This document shows, piece after piece, positions 1,946 through 54,257 of a DNA stretch of 64,000 bases. The DNA is taken from NCBI GenBank assembly GCA_963696395.1, contig CAVOJZ010000002.1:559317-623316 (forward strand), given 5' to 3'. Origin of the DNA: an uncultured bacterium. Lineage in GTDB: Bacteria; Patescibacteriota; Minisyncoccia; UBA6257; 2-01-FULL-56-20. Made by a program: the position numbers and the translations under genes. The first letter of the stretch is position 1, and each line of letters opens with the position of its first letter. The notes under the pieces are model-generated. The model was not told where the DNA came from. It made no database searches and saw only the letters and a list, made by a program, of their open reading frames with translations.

Positions 1946-2986
1946 TTAATCCAGGCCGCTGTTCGCGTAGGACGCAACGGTGTCCCACGTGGTATGCGAT
2001 ATTGCCGAGATGGTTTGCGTAAGGCTCGCAAGGTTGGTGCCTTTGGTCATCACGCAGAGAATGTACGGATGATTCGGATAATAAACGATACCGCAATCCG
2101 AGAGCGTGATTTCGGGTGTTATTGGATTGCTGCCGTCCACACTCTCACCGAATTTGTGCGCTATCACGGTGCCGCTCGGAAGTCCCGCGACGAGGCCCTG
2201 GCTGTATCTGGCTTGCGCCATGATTCCCAAAGCCTTCTCGGAATATTCGCGGCTCAAATAGGTTGCATTGAATAATGCTTTCAGGATTGTGGAATATTGC
2301 TTTGCCGAAATGGTATAGGTGGAATAATCCTGTGTCACATCAAGATACGAGAATCCCAGATCAGTTGATATTTCGCTCAGGCTGCTCGCGGAAATGTTAT
2401 CGATCAGAGCATTCTTTGCGCCGTTGTCGGAATTCTCAATCATCGCTTCGATGAGTTGTTCCACGGTATAGGTTCCTCCAACTTGAAGATCCGAGGGCGT
2501 CTCAAACGGTATGCCGTTGAGTTGATCCGCCGTGGATGAGGAATAGAGCAACGTCTGTTGCAGGATCGACGGATCAGCCTCAGCCTCTTTATAGTAGGCG
2601 ATCATGAGCACCACCTTCATCATGCTGCCGGGAGCAAAGCCGGTGTTCTCGTTTATGCCGCTCCAACGTCCAAGGGAAAGATCGCGGAAATAAAAACCGT
2701 AGGCATCCGGCGGCGAGCTGGTCTCGGAGGAGACCACGGCGCTCACGGCTGATTGCAGGGGACTGTATTCGTCGATTTCCTGTATCGTGTTCGGAAGGTC
2801 GTATCCGAGAAGCGGATTGATGAAGTGGTAACTATTGTCGGTCTGCCGCATCGGTTTGATTTGCAAAGCGATGGCGGCAAGTTGGGAATTGAGACTGCTG
2901 TACCAAAAAATGGAAGCGACGGCGGCTCCGCCAACGAAGGCGCCGCAGTATTTCGCGGCGGTTTTCCATTGAACATTTAGCTTCAT
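1946..2986 (-). CDS. serine hydrolase of beta-lactamase / D-Ala-D-Ala carboxypeptidase type
   Basis: SxxK (SMMK), SDN (ENSDNG) and KxG-like (KFG) motifs in order; N-terminal TM/signal. Confidence 0.6.
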   Translation of the reverse strand: MKLNVQWKTAAKYCGAFVGGAAVASIFWYSSLNSQLAAIALQIKPMRQTDNSYHFINPLLGYDLPNTIQEIDEYSPLQSAVSAVVSSETSSPPDAYGFYFRDLSLGRWSGINENTGFAPGSMMKVVLMIAYYKEAEADPSILQQTLLYSSSTADQLNGIPFETPSDLQVGGTYTVEQLIEAMIENSDNGAKNALIDNISASSLSEISTDLGFSYLDVTQDYSTYTISAKQYSTILKALFNATYLSREYSEKALGIMAQARYSQGLVAGLPSGTVIAHKFGESVDGSNPITPEITLSDCGIVYYPNHPYILCVMTKGTNLASLTQTISAISHTTWDTVASYANSGLD

Positions 2987-3045
2987 TACCGATTATTATA
3001 GAATAGATTGATATTTTCGGAAAACCGTATACAATAATTCCGTAA

Positions 3046-3117
3046 GCGGGTATCGTATAGCGGCTATTATGTAACCTTGCCAAGGTTAAGATACGGGTTC
3101 GACTCCCGTTACCCGCT
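3046..3117 (+). tRNA. tRNA-Gly (GCC), no encoded CCA
   Basis: Acceptor gcgggta/tacccgc, anticodon stem taacc/ggtta loop ttGCCaa, T-arm acggg-ttcgact-cccgt. Confidence 0.75.
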
Positions 3118-3120
3118 CAG

Positions 3121-3912
3121 ATGATTATTGAAGTCAAAAATCTTACAAAGCGATTCGGGAGTTTTGTCGCCGTGGACGACGTCTCATTCGGCGTTGAACG
3201 GGGGGAAATTTTCGCGTGCCTTGGGCCGAATGGCGCAGGAAAAAGCACGACCATAAAGATGTTGATCACGCTTCTTGCGCCGACATCCGGCAATGCGGTG
3301 ATCAACGGGCACGACATCGTGCACCACGCCGCCGAGGTGCGGAACTCAATCGGCTATGTCCCGCAGGCGATCTCGGTTGACGGCACGCTCACGGCATATG
3401 AAAACCTTGTGCTCTTCGCCCGCCTCTACGACATCCCACGCACCGAACGCGCCGGACGCATCAAGGAAGCGCTCGCATTTTTGAAACTTGAAGACCACGC
3501 AAATGCCCTCGTCAGGACTTTTTCCGGCGGCATGATCCGCAAAATGGAAATCGGCCAGGCGATGTTGCATCGTCCTGCGGTGCTCTTTCTCGACGAACCG
3601 ACGACCGGCCTTGATCCCATTGCCCAGCAGAGCGTCTGGGGTCACCTTTCGGATTTGCGCGAAACCGGAACAACTATATTTTTTTCAACGCACAACATGG
3701 AAGAGGCGGATGGCGTGAGCGATCGCGTTGCCATCATGAACCAGGGGAAAATTGCTATCATCGGATCGGTGCCGGAACTGAAAGCAAAAACAAACAAGCA
3801 GAACGCGACGCTCGAGGATGCGTTTATCTTCTTTACCGGCAACACTATGAAGGAAACAGGAAACTTCCGTGAAATACGGAAGATGCGGCAAAACGAACGA
3901 AGACTTGGATAA
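3121..3912 (+). CDS. ABC transporter ATP-binding protein
   Basis: Walker A GPNGAGKST, signature LSGGM, Walker B LFLDEPTTGLD. Confidence 0.9.
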   Translation: MIIEVKNLTKRFGSFVAVDDVSFGVERGEIFACLGPNGAGKSTTIKMLITLLAPTSGNAVINGHDIVHHAAEVRNSIGYVPQAISVDGTLTAYENLVLFARLYDIPRTERAGRIKEALAFLKLEDHANALVRTFSGGMIRKMEIGQAMLHRPAVLFLDEPTTGLDPIAQQSVWGHLSDLRETGTTIFFSTHNMEEADGVSDRVAIMNQGKIAIIGSVPELKAKTNKQNATLEDAFIFFTGNTMKETGNFREIRKMRQNERRLG

Positions 3913-4701: not shown

Positions 4702-5418
4702 ATGAATCCATCAACAAAGAAGACGCTGATCTATGTTCTCATTGTTCTTGTGGCCGCAATCGTCATCGGCGTAATCGCGTGGTCTTCCCGCCCTGCAGAG
4801 ACTCCCGCGAGTGTTTCGACAACTGGAACGCCTTCCGGAGTGACGACAACAACAACGACGTCCACGGCACCTTCAGCAACGGCATCCTCCTCGATCAGCG
4901 CACAGGCATCTTCCACGGGCGGCCTCACGGTTAAGGTGAGTCCGATTGTTCCCTCTGCCACGTCAACCTCGTGGGAATCGTATACGGCCAAAACCGTCAA
5001 GGTTGCTTTTAGCGTTCCGCCAGGCTGGGCACCGGGTCCAAATATCCCGATCTCGATTGATAATTTTAATCATCAATATCAAGGCGATTCGATTATTCCG
5101 CCGGGCGGCGCCGAGATCGATATCGTGAGCACTAACTATTCGGGTTTGCTTGCCGACCTTATCAAAACAGAGACCATGAGCGGAACCGTAAACGCAACAA
5201 GCACGGTTTCCGTCGAAGGAGTTTCGTGCGCAAAGGTTATGTATAGCTCAAGCTATGCGAGCGGCTATCCTTCAAGCAATGTTGCCGTATACTGTCAGGA
5301 TGCGGCAAATGGCTTGCTTTACAAATTCTATCTTTCATATCCCTCCGGTGATTCGAAAGGGACGCAGGACCTTGCGGTGTTCGGACAGTTTTTAGGTAAG
5401 GTCCAGTTCACTCAATGA
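4702..5418 (+). CDS. hypothetical membrane-anchored Ser/Thr-rich protein
   Basis: N-terminal TM then low-complexity T/S tract; no catalytic motif. Confidence 0.5.
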   Translation: MNPSTKKTLIYVLIVLVAAIVIGVIAWSSRPAETPASVSTTGTPSGVTTTTTTSTAPSATASSSISAQASSTGGLTVKVSPIVPSATSTSWESYTAKTVKVAFSVPPGWAPGPNIPISIDNFNHQYQGDSIIPPGGAEIDIVSTNYSGLLADLIKTETMSGTVNATSTVSVEGVSCAKVMYSSSYASGYPSSNVAVYCQDAANGLLYKFYLSYPSGDSKGTQDLAVFGQFLGKVQFTQ

Positions 5419-48437: not shown

Positions 48438-48508
48438 TCGGGCTGCTGGGAATCGAACCCAGTCTTTACGCACCCGAAGCGCACGTACTACCGGTATACT
48501 ACAGCCCG
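48438..48508 (-). tRNA. tRNA-Pro (CGG), no encoded CCA
   Basis: Reverse complement folds: acceptor cgggctg/cagcccg, anticodon loop ttCGGgt, T-arm ctggg-ttcgatt-cccag. Confidence 0.7.
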
Positions 48509-49559
48509 AAGTTGAGGAGGAGATGCGCAAGCAAGCTTGCGTATCTCCGACGAAACGAGGGATGAAAAGCTTCTTAGCTTTACAGCCCGAAGTTACCAAG
48601 GTATTTAAACCTTTTTTGGGGAAAAACTCAACTGCCCGGGAAGCTATTGACACTATTTTTCAGGTGAGTATACTTACTCCTAAGATACGAATGTTCAAGA
48701 ACGTAAATCTTTCACCAACCACCGGCTAGCCCCGCAATTTTAGATTGTGAAGCAGCCGCCGTGCGCGGCTGATTTTATTCTTGGGTATGTCGTGTCGAAC
48801 GTTTTTTACCAATATTCGTTCGACTACTTGAGCGAACTTCCGAATTGTAGAGTCGGAAGATTCATATGAAGCTCCGCGCCATCTTATGTCCGACTGTGCC
48901 TACAAGCACGGGCGGGCAGAGGCCTACGTAACGCATTTCTAGGCCTCCAATTTCTCTTGGCAGGCGGAGCATGTTCTTAAATAGAACAAAAAAGTCAGCA
49001 TTGGGATGGTTGGCACATAAGGGCGAATGGTGGATGCCTAGACTAGAAAAGGCGATGAAGGACGTGGCGTAGCAACGATATGCCTCGGGGAGGTGCGTAG
49101 CAACCTGTGATCCGGGGATTTCCGAATGGGGAAACCTAGTTGAGTAAACCTCAATTGCGTGGAGCAATCCACGAGCGTACCCGGCGAAGTAAAACATTTC
49201 AGTAGCCGGAGGAAAAAAGAACAAGCAGTTTATTCCCTGAGTATCGGCGAGAGAAAAGGGAAGAGCCCAGACTAAGGTTGTGATTTATCACAGCCTTGGA
49301 GTTATAAGTGTTGAACGCTCTCCTTCGCGAATAATAAAGGGCGCAGTAATGTGCTCTCTATTATTTGCGAGCGGAGGTGGAGGAGTTAAAAAATCATTGG
49401 TTAGCCGAAATCAGCTGGAAAGCTGATACCAGAGAGGGTGATAGTCCCCTAGGCGAAAACTTTTGGTCTCCTTAGTTTATCTACTTGAGTACTTCGAAGT
49501 AAAACAGTTTCGAAGGAATTAGCCAGTACTATCTGGCAAGGCTAAATACTTTTCTAGAT

Positions 49560-49596
<37 letters not shown>

Positions 49597-51020
49597 CAGG
49601 CCGGTGAGGCCGTTGAAATAGAACCTGAAACCATTTGTCTACAAGGAATTGAAGCACGAACGGCTGGGGAGCAATCCTCGGACGAGTGCGACAATGTGCC
49701 TATTGAAGAATGATCCAACGACTTATTTTTGTGTCGCTTGTCTAAACGCGCATAGCGTGTAGGCGCAGCGAAAGCGAGTCTTAATAGGGCGAAATTAAGG
49801 CGGCACAGTATAGACCCGAAGCGTGATGAGCTTACCTTGGCCAGGGTGAACTCTCGAGAAATCGAGAGGGAGGCCCGAACCGGTTGATTGTTCAAAATCT
49901 TCGGATGAGCTGAGGTAAGGAGTGAAAAGCTAATCGAATTACGTAATAGCTGGTTCTCTCCGAAATAGTTTTAGGACTAGCGGCGAATGTTCCCCGTGGG
50001 GGTAGAGCACTGGATGATCTGTAATGGTCGAAAGACCGCCAGATCAATCAAACTCCGAATACCGCGGGTTAAAAGTTCGCTAGTTAGACTGTGGGGGCTA
50101 AGCTCCATGGTCGCGAGGGGAAGAGCCCAGATCGTCATCTAAGGTCCCGAAGTCCATGCTCAGTGTGAAAGGTAGTCATCACCCATAGACAGATAGGAGG
50201 TTGGCTTAGAGGTAGCCATCCTTTAAAGAGTGTGTAACAACTCACTATTCGACGGGTGGTGGCGCCGAAAATGTACCGGGGCTCAAGCATGGCACCGAAG
50301 ATACGAATTTACATGTCCCTCGGGACGTGTATCTGGTAGGAGAGCATTCCGGCCTGCAGTGAAGGTCAACCCGCGAGGGTGACTGGAGCGGCCGGAAGAG
50401 AAAATGTTGGAATGAGTAACCACAATCCCAATGAGAAATTGGAACCCCGAAAATCTGAGGTTTCCGTGGCACTGGCAATCAACCACGGGTTAGGCGGTCC
50501 TAAGGCAATCCCGAAAGGGGCAGTCGATGGAAAGCTGGTTAATATTCCAGCCCTCCTATGTGTTTATCCTGCGCGTGCAAGGGAAATAATCATGTATGTC
50601 TTATTGGTTTGGTATCGCTGCGGACAAGTTCAAGCGGTCCGCGGCGGAAGGTGAGGAATTTACCTCATCGACACATGAGAAGAGCCCTTCGAGAAAAGCG
50701 CGTTTGTTATGACACGTGGGATCCGTACCGTAAACCGACACTGGTGGATAGGGCGAGTAGCCCAAGGGGAACGAGTGATTTGCCTCTAAGGAACTAGGCA
50801 AAAAAGCGGCCGTAAGTTCGCAATAAGGCCTGCCCTCCGCAAGGAGGGCCGCAGCTAAAGTATCTCTGGCGACTGTTTACCAAAAACACAGCTCCCTGCT
50901 AACTCGCAAGAGGATGTATAGGGGGTGACGCCTGACCGATGCGAGAAGGTCAAGGTTGGGGGTGGCGTAGCAATACGTTGCTCACTGACTCAAGCCCTCG
51001 TCAATGTCAGCGATAACTAT

Positions 51021-51766
51021 GAAATACGATTGTAGTTATAAAATTTGGCTATATGCTGGAATACCTGAGTATCCGACATTACCGTTGGTGCAAAAATAAA
51101 TTAAAAAATCATTAAAACTGATTTTGGAATTTACTTTTTGTTTGCTACGGTGAAAATATGATCGGTGCAGACAATCAGCAGGAAAGGCTTTGGTCGCAAA
51201 AATGGCTTAACGATATTCCAGAAAATATCGGTTGGTATCTTTCGGGCTTCGTAGACGGAGAAGGGAGCTTTAACGCTTCGCTTCGGAAGGGAAATGGGCA
51301 TCGCCTCGGATGGCAGGTGCAGTTAACTTTTAATGTAGCCCAGCGAGATATTACTGATTTGGAATTATTGAAGCGTCATTTTGCATGTGGACGATTACAA
51401 AATCGAAAGGACGGAGTTCGTTATTTCGTCGTTTGTGATTATCGTTCCATTATCAATCGGGTTATACCATTCTTTGAGAAATTTCCTTTCTATTCTGTTT
51501 CAAAACAGAAAAACTTCTTTCTTTTCAAACAAATCGCACTTCTGATGGGCCAGGGCAAACACCTTGATCCAGAAGGATTCCGCGAGATTGTTTCTATAAG
51601 AGAAAGATTAAACGAAGGGAAAGGACGAAGAAGAAAATATAACGAGAGCGATATGATTAAAGAATCCTCAGAGACTACACGCCAAACTTCGCGTATCGCG
51701 AAGATGATATAGTCCGAACTGCATGGCGACATGCAGAGTTGCTCTCTCACGAGCAGAATAACAGAT
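51021..51766 (+). mobile_element. group I intron 1a in 23S at the E. coli 1917-equivalent site, carrying a LAGLIDADG ORF
   Basis: 5' exon ends ...gataactaT; P7 R element cagagactacacg (about 51678) and S aagatgatatagtcc (about 51703); ends in G before exon aatcgttctaaggt. Confidence 0.6.
51158..51712 (+). CDS. single-motif LAGLIDADG homing endonuclease (intron-encoded)
   Basis: YLSGFVDGEGSF dodecapeptide near N-terminus, 184 aa, inside 23S intron. Confidence 0.75.
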   Translation: MIGADNQQERLWSQKWLNDIPENIGWYLSGFVDGEGSFNASLRKGNGHRLGWQVQLTFNVAQRDITDLELLKRHFACGRLQNRKDGVRYFVVCDYRSIINRVIPFFEKFPFYSVSKQKNFFLFKQIALLMGQGKHLDPEGFREIVSIRERLNEGKGRRRKYNESDMIKESSETTRQTSRIAKMI

Positions 51767-51780
51767 GAATCGTTCTAAGG

Positions 51781-52018
51781 TGGAATTGAAACTGCCTTAG
51801 TAAAACCTAACTATATGCTGGAACACCCGCGCATATCAGAGTACCGCAAGGTAACAATCTCTGATCGAAGCGGACAATCAGCAGGAAACTTCTTCGGAAG
51901 GATCCTCAGAGACTACACGTTAGGATCGCCGGGTGGCGATAAGATATAGTCCGAACTGCATAGCGATATGCAGAGCCAAGCAGAAATGTTTTGGCCAACA
52001 TAGGTTGTAACATGTTTG
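51781..52018 (+). mobile_element. group I intron 1b (ORF-less, ~238 nt) in 23S at the E. coli 1931-equivalent site
   Basis: Q caatcagcagg (about 51872), R cagagactacacg (about 51908), S aagatatagtcc (about 51938); joined exons give aactat-aatcgttctaaggt-agcgcaattcc, matching E. coli aactataacggtcctaaggtagcgaaattcc. Confidence 0.55.
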
Positions 52019-52716
52019 AGCGCAATTCCTTTTCGGGTAAGTTCCGAAGCGCACGAAAGGCGTAACGACCGGAGAACTGTCTCAGAGGCAAGCTCGGTGA
52101 AAATGCGATTCCCGTGAAGACGCGGGATACCTGCAGCGGGACGAAAAGACCCCGGAAGCTTTACTGCAGCTTGGTATTGATTTTAGAGTTCTACTACGTA
52201 GCGTAGTGGTGAGGATTTGAAGCACAGCTCTCGGGTTGTGTGGATCCGACAATGAAACAGCCATTTTTAGAACTTTAACGTCTAACCGGTTGGGGACCTT
52301 ACAAGGAAACCCAACTGAGACAGTGCTTGGTAGGCAGTTTAAATGGGGCGTTTTCCTCCAAAAGAGTAACGGAGGAGTTTATTAAGGTCAGCTTAGCCCG
52401 GATGGAAATCGGGCAGGACGTGCAAACGCAAAAGCTGGCTTGACTGCGAGACCTACAAGTCGAGCAGGTGCGAAAGCAGAAGTTAGTGACCCGACGGCTA
52501 TGTTCATGTAATTTATTATATGAATTCTTAATAGGAAGGCCGGAGACACCGGATAAAAGCTACTCCGGGGATAACAGGCTAGTATTGTCCGAGCGTCCCT
52601 AGCGACGACAATGCTCGGCACCTCGATGTCGGCTCGCCACAGCGCGGGGGTGGAGAAGCTCCCAAGCGTTTGGCTGTTCGCCAATTAAAGTGGCACGTGA
52701 GCTGGGTTCAGACCGT

Positions 52717-53425
52717 TGAATACAAGAACCCTTAACGACGAATCGAACACGGCGGCTATCTCGAGTAATCGAGATTGAAAAAATCGACTCATATCGGTGA
52801 AACCCTAGCGTTCATGACCTGTGAGCGTATCTAAATGTTTATTAAAAATAAATTAAAAACTATTTTGTATGAACAGGCGATCATAGGATAATACCGAGGG
52901 AAGTCGCATATGGAATTTTCGTCAACGCAAAAAGCATATCTTGCAGGTTTTCTTGATGGTGATGGCAGCATCTATGTACGATTGAAACCAAATAGCGATT
53001 ATCGTTATGGGTTTCAGGTCGCACCGTGTGTTGCATTTTTTCAATCATCAAAAGACCGCAAGAGCTTTGAAGAGATCTGCAATCTCATTGGTAACGGATA
53101 TCTGCGGGAAAGAAACGATGGCATGTTGGAGTATGTTATGCAGAAACAACAGGCGATCTACTCTTTTCTTTTGGACATACGGCCATTTCTTATTCTTAAG
53201 AAACGGCAAGCCGATTTGATGCTCGTGATTTTGGAAAAGAAAATGCTCGTAAAATCTAAAGAAGATTTTATAGCGTTGATGGAGTTAATCGATCAATTCC
53301 GAGAATTAAATTATTCGAAGAAACGAAAGATTCATATGTTGACCCTCTAGAGACTACACGTCGATCTCCTCGAAAGAGGATGGTGGTATAGTCCGGCACT
53401 CCTGGTAACAGGAGAATACAGTATG
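52717..53425 (+). mobile_element. group I intron 2 in 23S at the E. coli 2593-equivalent site (I-CreI site), carrying an I-CreI-like ORF
   Basis: Exon junction ttcagaccgT | ... G | cgtgagacaggtcgg reconstitutes ...accgtcgtgagacag (E. coli gaacgtcgtgagacag); P7 R/S elements agagactacacg / tatagtcc at about 53350/53390. Confidence 0.7.
52910..53350 (+). CDS. I-CreI-family LAGLIDADG homing endonuclease (intron-encoded)
   Basis: YLAGFLDGDGSIY motif; overall similarity to I-CreI (FLxxxxPFLxLKxxQAxLxLxIxE; DQxxxLNxSKxRK) at the homologous rDNA site. Confidence 0.8.
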   Translation: MEFSSTQKAYLAGFLDGDGSIYVRLKPNSDYRYGFQVAPCVAFFQSSKDRKSFEEICNLIGNGYLRERNDGMLEYVMQKQQAIYSFLLDIRPFLILKKRQADLMLVILEKKMLVKSKEDFIALMELIDQFRELNYSKKRKIHMLTL

Positions 53426-53913
53426 CGTGAGACAGGTCGGTCTCTATCTGCTGCAGGCGTTTATTACTTGAGGGGAGTTGGCCTTAGTAAGAAATTGCTA
53501 CTTTCTGGAGTAATCCAGATTGCCAACTCGGCTAATAACGGTGAAACCCTAATTCTTGCTTCATCGCGATTAATATTTCATTAAAAATTTATTAATCGTA
53601 GATTGAAATGCAGTCCTCTTTCCCTATCATTGAAATATGATACAAGAGCAGGGCAATACCGTGGGAAGTCGATCTAATAATTTTAGGTTTGACCCCGTAA
53701 CGACTTGTGTCCTCGGCTTTGCGCCGAGTGACCGGATAGCGGTCTTTGAATCGCTATAACATGCCGACGCCCGACTTCGCACACGCGAAAGGGCGAAGAT
53801 ATAGTCTGAGCACGTAGTAATACGTGAGTGCTTGACGAGAGGACTGGGCTGAACATACCTCTGGTCTATCGGCTTTGCCACCAGGTGAATTGCCGAGTAG
53901 CTATGTATGGAAG

Positions 53914-54136: not shown

Positions 54137-54257
54137 GATGTCGGTGTTTTATCCTTGTGTGTCCCACCTCTTCCCATTCCGAACAGAGAAGTGAAAGCAC
54201 AAGCATCCGATGATACTCATCGCTTCGGCTTTGGGGAAAGTAGGATATGCCGACATC
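54137..54257 (+). rRNA. rrf: 5S rRNA
   Basis: gtcccacctcttcccattccgaacagagaagtgaaag matches the 5S loop B/C consensus; ends gatgtcgg/ccgacatc pair; an extended flanking helix 54125-54268 is followed by a T-run. Confidence 0.8.

Follow-up and report, generated by a model that had tools for sequence, protein, structure and literature searches.

We analysed a stretch of 64,000 nucleotides (nt), hereafter the window, from an uncultured bacterium of the candidate phyla radiation (CPR; GTDB lineage Patescibacteriota; Minisyncoccia; UBA6257; 2-01-FULL-56-20), which comprises positions 559,317-623,316 of the forward strand of contig CAVOJZ010000002.1 (GCA_963696395.1). Its plus strand carries a 23S rRNA gene that starts at 49007 and whose exon blocks run to about 54047, as mapped by blastn against the Escherichia coli 23S gene (locus L001 670-3572). 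Between 51021 and 52018 this gene is interrupted by an insertion of 998 nt in total, inside which lies a mini-exon, AATCGTTCTAAGGT. Throughout, L1917, L1931, L2593 and L2656 designate intron sites in E. coli numbering, and labels of the type L001-L171 designate comparison loci (genomes or metagenome contigs). The interrupted region is organised as follows.

51015-51020, plus strand: end of the 5' exon, AACUAU, E. coli 1912-1917 (U1917 is base 51020); exon strand of P1 of intron 1
51021-51767, plus strand: intron 1, predicted group I, L1917, 747 nt
51158-51712, plus strand: LAGLIDADG open reading frame (ORF) of 184 amino acids (aa), single motif LSGFVDGEGSF, taken from the ORF list
51768-51781, plus strand: mini-exon AAUCGUUCUAAGGU, 14 nt, E. 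coli 1918-1931, the 3' half of helix 69 (H69) onward
51782-52018, plus strand: intron 2, predicted group I, L1931, ORF-less, 237 nt
52019-52029, plus strand: start of the 3' exon, AGCGCAAUUCC, E. coli 1932-1942 (52019 is A1932 by blastn)

The mini-exon matches E. coli 1918-1931 (AACGGTCCTAAGGT) position for position, and the joined exons AACTAT-AATCGTTCTAAGGT-AGCGCAATTCC align base for base with E. coli 23S 1912-1942 (AACTATAACGGTCCTAAGGTAGCGAAATTCC). A first-pass annotation of the region had claimed that removal of two segments would restore the conserved H69-H71 sequence, and the alignment bears this out. The outer limits it gave, 51021 and 52018, coincide to the base with the start of intron 1 and the end of intron 2, and both segments end in G (G51767 and G52018), as it had stated; its mini-exon, at 51767-51780, is off by one base, and its estimate of about 238 nt for intron 2 becomes 237 nt. 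The R, S and Q-like elements that it described are present, at positions differing from those it gave by 0-9 bases. The R element CAGAGACTACACG has a chance expectation of 0.01 matches and is found at 51669 and 51907 (previously about 51678 and about 51908), with a third copy containing one mismatch at 53348; the S elements are AAGATGATATAGTCC at 51701 and AAGATATAGTCC at 51941, and the Q-like element CAATCAGCAGG occurs at 51172 and 51875.

Based on this mapping and on the structural and comparative data below, we propose that 51021-52018 holds two separate group I self-splicing introns, located after U1917 and U1931 and separated by a 14-nt exon, of which intron 1 is mobile. We estimate the probability of this reading, as judged from sequence, at about 90%.

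The helices of both introns were checked by direct complementarity of their strands. Those of intron 2 from P3 to P9.2 were verified in this way, with the guide elements at its 5' end.

51782-88, plus strand: leader GGAAUUG, complementary at 7/7 positions to CAAUUCC at 52023-52029, P10-like
51794-51800, plus strand: internal guide sequence GCCUUAG, forming P1 with CUAAGGU; U51781·G51794
51806-11/51919-24, plus strand: P3
51817-21/51878-82, plus strand: P4
51827-30/51870-73, plus strand: P5, with P5a/P5b and a GCAA loop
51883-86/51903-06, plus strand: P6
51889-51900, plus strand: P6a, UUCG loop
51911-15/51947-51, plus strand: P7, GACUA/UAGUC
51925-30/51935-40, plus strand: P8
51956-62/51967-73, plus strand: P9, GCGA loop
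51975-79/51991-95, plus strand: P9.1
51997-52001/52012-16, plus strand: P9.2
52018, plus strand: terminal G

Intron 2 scores 67.8 bits against the Rfam model Intron_gpI (RF00028; gathering score 50, E 4.7e-15, model positions 1-253), and the z-score of its minimum free energy is -3.95. Covariation was counted on a set of seven ORF-less L1931 introns (A4: window, L002, L015, L016, L017, L071 and L086), because a MAFFT alignment of ten such introns (A3) misplaced L008 and the P2-bearing L051 and L070. Among the seven homologues, 93.5% of the cells hold standard pairs, as opposed to 30-41% when the 3' partners are slid by 1-3 columns; 25 pairs are changed on both sides, compared with 4-8 in the slid controls, and the covariation score is reached by none of 500 shuffles. 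The double changes fall on 5 of the 6 pairs of P3, all 6 of P8 and 4 of the 7 of P9, and P5a and P9.1 covary too. The first-pass description of the second segment as a minimal, ORF-less group I intron is thus upheld by the Rfam score, the helices and the covariation.

Related L1931 introns with the same type of guide contain LAGLIDADG ORFs of 153-194 aa, located at about position 107 of the window intron, that is, in the P6 loop; like the ORF of intron 1, these begin ...ADNQQER..., read from the ribozyme core. Their proteins are about 32% identical to the L1917 endonuclease of the window, and those of stand-alone L1931 introns 31-37%. L1931 introns of 385-613 nt are also found, among which L144 (613 nt) is the only one with a LAGLIDADG-like ORF of at least 80 aa; the 81-aa ORF of L149 bears no relation to the endonuclease, and in L102, L164 and L170 no ORF reaches 80 aa. 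Compared with these sequences, the window P6a with its UUCG tetraloop is the gene-free state of the L1931 family. Homing elements usually pass through a cycle of gain, degeneration and loss, and intron 2 may have reached its gene-free state by losing a gene rather than by never having gained one. It would persist by vertical descent, possibly being co-converted as intron 1 homes 14 bp away.

Intron 1 has a complete P1-P9 core with a U·G pair at the 5' splice site and a terminal G, as assessed by complementarity; its helices are listed below, all of them being fully complementary.

51026-51031, plus strand: P10 guide ACGAUU, pairing at 6/6 positions with AAUCGU at 51768-73
51032-51037, plus strand: internal guide sequence GUAGUU, pairing at 6/6 positions with AACUAU; U51020·G51032 at the 5' splice site
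51044-49/51681-86, plus strand: P3
51055-59/51175-79, plus strand: P4
About 51085-51162, plus strand: A/U-rich P5 extension
51180-83/51665-68, plus strand: P6, with the body of the ORF in its loop
51673-77/51710-14, plus strand: P7
51687-93/51697-703, plus strand: P8
51719-25/51730-36, plus strand: P9
51740-44/51751-55, plus strand: P9.1
51767, plus strand: terminal G

The core of intron 1 matches the ORF-less L1917 intron of L027 (248 nt) in every block, with two insertions only, namely the P5 extension (about 51085-51162) and about 470 nt in the P6 loop. This intron of L027 and the ORF-less L1917 intron of L030 score 81.8 and 74 bits, respectively, against Intron_gpI. When each segment is compared separately with a group I covariance model, a check suggested in the first-pass annotation, intron 2 is above the Rfam threshold and the ORF-less orthologues of intron 1 reach 74-82 bits, intron 1 itself giving only a partial, sub-threshold match.

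The two ribozymes would share the mini-exon without competing for it. The guide of intron 1 is continuous, ACGAUU-GUAGUU, in which GUAGUU forms P1 with AACUAU and ACGAUU forms P10 with AAUCGU, the first six bases of the mini-exon; bases 8-14 (CUAAGGU) pair with GCCUUAG of intron 2. In this way 13 of the 14 mini-exon bases are claimed by two ribozymes with no overlap, so that both introns would be recognisable at the same time. Across about 50 loci, P10 of the L1917 intron covaries with the mini-exon, and each of four exon variants is matched by a variant of the guide: AAUCGU by ACGAUU, AACGGU by ACCGUU, AAUUGU by ACAAUU, and AACGAU by AUCGUU. The 7/7 pairing between the leader of intron 2 and its 3' exon is matched by 5 of 500 shuffled leaders. 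It recurs in related L1931 introns, and L147 shows a compensatory change, the exon going from C to A and the leader from G to U.

Each intron also occurs without the other. We scanned species-representative genomes for relatives of the endonuclease, which 155 of 164 pattern matches encode, and searched metagenome contigs by exact pattern for L1931 insertions without an L1917 intron. The relatives L004, L006/7, L010 and L011 contain the L1917 intron only, with the mini-exon directly joined to AGCGCAATTCC; the 14-mer is identical in L004, L006 and L010, and has one base changed in L011. Others fetched through the endonuclease have both introns (L002/3, L005, L008/9 and L012/13). The exons of L010 are 99.4% identical to those of the window, yet this locus is without the L1931, L2593 and L2656 introns. 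Nearly half of the evaluable L1917-intron loci (24 of 50) also have an insertion at 1931, of 188-811 nt, and at least 120 metagenome contigs combine an uninterrupted exon at 1917 with an insertion after U1931. These L1931-only contigs include some with GCCUUAG-type guides like that of the window, for example L144, which has the mini-exon variant of the window. In the comparison with related CPR genes proposed at first pass, relatives devoid of the second intron join the mini-exon straight to the 3' exon. Exon mapping, Rfam scores, helices, guide pairings, covariation and independent presence or absence all point to independent introns at the 1917 and 1931 sites, as first annotated.

Several points weigh against this reading. 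P4 and P7 are invariant across the compared sequences, so that covariation neither supports nor contradicts these two helices. The match of intron 1 to Intron_gpI is partial and below threshold (36.1 bits, 51583-51736, the 3' half), its core being split by about 550 nt of ORF and P5 extension. The leader pairing of intron 2 begins 4 nt past the splice site, which is not the textbook position of P10, and such a pairing is weak or absent in some relatives, e.g. L070 and L071. A tblastn search detected no endonuclease remnants in the intermediate L1931 introns of L005, L014, L017, L102, L149, L164 and L170, a search that is uninformative since its matches are limited to C-terminal residues overlapping the ribozyme core. 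Splicing, its order and its efficiency are all inferred from sequence. Lastly, the L1931 intron of Simkania is reportedly unspliced, according to the title of a paper, and this counts in favour of insertions that stay in the RNA or leave it broken.

Such a fate, in which the insertions are either kept in the mature rRNA or excised without ligation in the manner of RNase III-processed intervening sequences, giving a fragmented 23S, has precedents among bacterial 23S intervening sequences, which are excised without ligation (PMC4990558). We regard it as very unlikely here, since the ribozyme folds and guide pairings are clearly under selection. The sites lie in or near H69, and the other introns of the gene near the peptidyl-transferase centre and the sarcin-ricin loop, where retained kilobase insertions or breaks would be hard to reconcile with function. 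In addition, PMC11270868, citing Brown et al., reports that CPR rRNA transcripts lose their insertions. A single composite element, twintron-like or internally duplicated and removed from 51021-52018 in one splicing event, could be imagined from the adjacency of the two parts and the core motifs that they have in common, and the 5' splice site of intron 1 could in principle be joined to the terminal G of intron 2 to give an exon-skipped product. Exon skipping by the tandem introns of Coxiella reportedly figures in the title of a paper by Hicks (2011). One-step removal would, however, delete 14 universally conserved rRNA bases (1918-1931), which are identical in relatives having just one of the introns. 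The guide of intron 1 pairs with the first six of these bases, and covaries with them, and the last seven belong to the pairing with the guide of intron 2; both parts are ribozymes complete from P1 to P9, and each is found alone elsewhere. We consider a composite element extremely improbable. The twintron as such was ruled out, as 14 nt of genuine conserved exon separate two elements that are each structurally complete.

The two introns resemble each other, and one could ask whether intron 2 is a recent local copy of intron 1, made by duplication, ectopic reverse splicing or gene conversion. Identical or near-identical stretches in P3/J3-4/P4, P4'-P6, J6/7-P7 and J8/7-P7'-P9 of both introns would fit such an origin, as would the P9 hairpins, which differ by one compensatory pair only. 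The ranking of 68 introns by identity over the 3' block, however, argues otherwise, as the two window introns are only 64% identical there and come 11th and 18th in each other's lists. The L1931 introns of L002, L014, L015 and L016 match intron 2 at 89-95% identity, and the L1917 introns of L002, L004 and L008 match intron 1 at 79-93%; the nearest relatives of each are same-site introns from other genomes, at 93-95%. Both families keep the motifs CCUCAGAGACUAYACG and GAUAUAGUCCGA and a GCGA-capped P9 in many CPR groups of phylum level, and what is specific to each site is P3, P8, the guides and the 3' tails. A recent local copy is accordingly most improbable: introns at the same site elsewhere are closer than the partner within the gene, which points to old common ancestry of the L1917 and L1931 families. 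The shared 3' block of about 75 nt, which the first-pass annotation took as suggesting a common origin, does reflect ancestry at the level of the families; it is their catalytic core, and not the trace of a recent duplication. The resemblance of L1917 and L1931 introns and their shared ancestry were also noted by Haugen et al. (PMC1995217).

Having weighed these alternatives, we retain two independent introns and propose how they would be spliced. Each ribozyme would fold independently within the precursor rRNA. Intron 1 would align the AACUAU and AAUCGU exons on its single continuous guide, and intron 2 would pair CUAAGGU with GCCUUAG, its leader GGAAUUG being able to pair with the downstream exon. 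Guanosine-dependent self-splicing and exon ligation of both introns are predicted from the comparative evidence, and two rounds of guanosine-initiated transesterification would then restore the H69-H71 sequence. Such an arrangement is a naturally occurring system in which to test how tandem ribozymes choose splice sites and skip exons.

The ORF of intron 1 belongs to LAGLIDADG_1 (PF00961; E 2.9e-19, 70.3 bits, cutoff 23.1). Among 15 aligned homologues, D33 and G34 of the motif do not vary, and E35 has a conservation of at least 90%; the acidic residue of the LAGLIDADG motif is nearly invariant among endonuclease homologues. Family match and conserved motif agree with the earlier claim that one of the introns has a LAGLIDADG ORF. 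The gene overlaps the ribozyme: its ATG lies within the 3' strand of P5, 5 nt downstream of GGUGA, its N-terminal residues IGADNQQER come from the P5'/P4'/P6 core, and its C-terminus is translated through P6', P7, P3' and P8, with the stop codon TAG inside P7'. Public data hold 1970 homologues, the best being 93% identical, and among the 80 loci listed most relatives are labelled as Patescibacteria (Paceibacterota, Minisyncoccia, Parcubacteria groups, Saccharibacteria and Microgenomates). The nearest solved structures are half-domains of I-SmaMI and I-OnuI and single-domain rRNA-intron endonucleases. From membership in this family and the patchy distribution of the intron among hosts with near-identical rRNA, we infer that the protein cleaves the intron-less target and promotes homing. 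Intron 1 would thus be a mobile element whose 184-aa protein should work as a homodimer, cutting intron-less 23S genes near position 1917, after which repair would copy intron 1 in.

The placement of the endonuclease gene is reversed in some relatives. An ORF-less L1917 intron (248-453 nt) occurs in L024/25, L027, L028 and L030, and independently in L045; these loci (e.g. L027 2007-3050) have the endonuclease in the 1931 element, which measures 773-811 nt and lies 14 nt past the L1917 intron. The endonucleases of the reversed loci are 54-61% identical to that of the window, i.e. of the L1917 type. In a neighbour-joining tree in which the L1931 endonuclease of L085, a locus with a gene in each intron, is the outgroup, the L024-L030 proteins fall within the clade of L1917-resident sequences, and L045 joins L1917-resident sequences on a separate branch. 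Both intron families have near-identical sequence on each side of the point of ORF insertion, which would let the gene move between introns by recombination. These comparisons suggest that an L1917-type endonuclease gene can move into the neighbouring L1931 intron. It is worth noting, as a separate observation, that the second element of L027 looks chimeric and ends in ...CCU, not in G.

It is possible, though we think it rather doubtful, that the two neighbouring introns form a joint homing cassette dependent on one L1917-type endonuclease. In that event, repair of a cut near 1917 from a donor having both introns would also bring in the ORF-less L1931 intron, which lies 14 bp from intron 1, and the endonuclease gene could reside in either intron with the same effect. 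The reversed loci, the low identity of the stand-alone L1931 endonucleases to that of the window and the near-identical flanks of the ORF insertion point fit such a cassette.

The arrangement has close counterparts in known systems. The 23S gene of Synechococcus sp. C9 has an L1917 intron (743 nt, with a 181-aa endonuclease), an L1931 intron and an L2593 intron in one gene (Haugen et al. 2007, PMC1995217), so that it and the window have three insertion sites in common, with a 14-nt exon between the first two in each. The L1917 introns compare at 743 nt and 181 aa in Synechococcus and 747 nt and 184 aa in the window, each with a single-motif LAGLIDADG protein whose reading frame extends in both from a peripheral loop through P7, P3 and P8 (PMC1995217). 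In both organisms the L1917 and L1931 introns lack P2 and are similar to each other. All three introns of Synechococcus contain endonuclease genes, its L1931 intron measuring 666 nt, whereas the L1931 intron of the window is ORF-less and 237 nt long; unlike Synechococcus, a cyanobacterium, the CPR window also has a fourth intron in the sarcin-ricin loop.

In Coxiella burnetii, the exon between neighbouring introns spans 1917 to 1951, compared with the 14 nt between 1917 and 1931 in the window. The two Coxiella introns are said, in the title of a paper by Raghavan et al. (2007), to flank a 34-bp exon, one of them being without the canonical terminal G, which both window introns have. The Coxiella endonuclease gene lies in L1951 (Table 1, PMC1995217), and that of the window in L1917. 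Splicing of Cbu.L1917 and Cbu.L1951 from the precursor was shown experimentally (PMC4990558).

A survey of CPR 23S genes (Tsurumaki et al. 2024, PMC11270868) lists LAGLIDADG_1 insertions at 1917, 1931, 1952, 2593, 2604 and 2657, classes 45% of 968 23S insertions as group I introns, and names the sites relevant here 23IS6 (1917), 23IS7 (1931), 23IS12 (2593) and 23IS14 (2657). The survey and the window agree in host group, in four sites, in group I character and in single-domain LAGLIDADG_1 genes. It also describes I-ShaI, a CPR endonuclease assigned to 23IS7 that was shown to cut its own insertion site and to form dimers; I-ShaI is a homologue from a different branch than the endonuclease of intron 1. 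The survey reports positions and ORF families, and in the text consulted we found no mention of guide pairings on the 14-nt exon, of an ORF-less minimal L1931 form or of L1917-type genes placed in either neighbouring intron. The set L1917, L1931 and L2593 is therefore already published and all four sites are catalogued in CPR bacteria, the window being a further example of a documented pattern. Two of its features, the ORF-less 237-nt L1931 form beside a gene-bearing L1917 intron and the non-overlapping use of the mini-exon by both guides, were not seen by us in PMC1995217, PMC11270868 and PMC4990558. The window is a clean, well-resolved example of dense packing of group I introns.

The gene contains four introns (L1917, L1931, L2593 and L2656), one more than the three first annotated. 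The remaining two, with the ORF of the third and the RNA genes on either side, are as follows.

52717-53425, plus strand: intron 3, group I, after the U2593 equivalent, 709 nt, ending in G
52910-53350, plus strand: ORF of intron 3, 146 aa, single-motif LAGLIDADG, matching I-CreI (E 4e-24) and I-MsoI
53489-53834, plus strand: intron 4, ORF-less, after the U2656 equivalent in the sarcin-ricin loop (AGU|ACGAGAGGAC), 346 nt
54139-54256: 5S rRNA gene, downstream of the 23S gene
48438-48508, minus strand: tRNA, the nearest RNA gene upstream of the 23S gene

The U2593 site of intron 3 is the I-CreI site. The likeness to the I-CreI/I-MsoI family concerns intron 3 only; the endonuclease of intron 1, about 32% identical, belongs to another LAGLIDADG_1 branch. 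Intron 3 is absent from the near-identical relative L010, where the exon is uninterrupted. Intron 4 has a P1 of UAGU/GCUA with a U·G pair and a terminal G, and scores 37.6 bits against Intron_gpI, below the gathering score. L005 seems to carry an insertion here as well, and the position corresponds to the '2657' CPR site of PMC11270868.

We found no 16S rRNA gene in the 64 kb of the window, the 23S-5S pair being unlinked to 16S here. The match to the Rfam model of bacterial large-subunit (LSU) rRNA, LSU_rRNA_bacteria (model 1-2925), halts at 52792, leaving introns 3 and 4 and some 280 nt of exon sequence outside the reported gene, so that automatic annotation would be wrong; as the boundaries 49007-52792 are unusable for exon mapping, blastn against the E. 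coli gene was used. Standard rRNA models misplace this gene, and half of the interrupted region could easily be taken for protein-coding or intergenic sequence. In domain I, window positions 49317-49384 (about 68 nt) are extra with respect to the bacterial LSU model, falling between its positions 312 and 313; this stretch has no intron match and may represent an expansion segment or intervening sequence.

A second class of element occurs after U1931, 185-205 nt long (metagenome loci L097, L098, L100, L109, L110, L112, L116, L117, L124, L131, L135, L139, L142, L150 and L171). These begin with a 5' hairpin followed by AAGGACUGGGACGAUU, complementary to the exon sequence AAUCGUCCU (1918-1926), and contain the P7-like motifs AGAGACCAUACG ... 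GAAGAUAUGGUCC; most end in G, and they score about 22 bits against Intron_gpI. If they are functional group I introns, they would be, to our knowledge, among the smallest natural ones. Intron 2, which the first-pass annotation put near the lower size limit for group I, is small, but with elements of 185-205 nt at the same site in metagenome contigs it is not at that limit.

The 3' ends of related introns vary. Both window introns end in G, and a number of L1917 introns end in A before AAUCG (L008 1508, L012 4684, L024/25, L027 2254, L030, L037, L051, L069, L073 and L082), for example ...GGACA|AAUCG and ...AGGCA|AAUCG; the L1931 element of L012 ends in ...ACAA.

Intron sets differ among loci whose 23S exons are 99-100% identical to those of the window, which points to fast intron turnover in a nearly fixed rRNA. 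L010 has a 75-bit group I intron (5042-5244) near E. coli 2262-2273 that the window is without, and its L1917 endonuclease is just 65% identical to that of the window. L002 has extra insertions at about 1258-1744 and a LAGLIDADG_2 ORF at 2572-3198. Many relatives also have an insertion after the U1951 equivalent (...TTGTCGGGT|A...), 20 nt past the 1931 site (L006 4644-4675, L008 1758-1790, L012 5047-5080, L023, L026, L027, L031, L037, L042 and L047), so that up to three introns within 35 nt of exon are possible.

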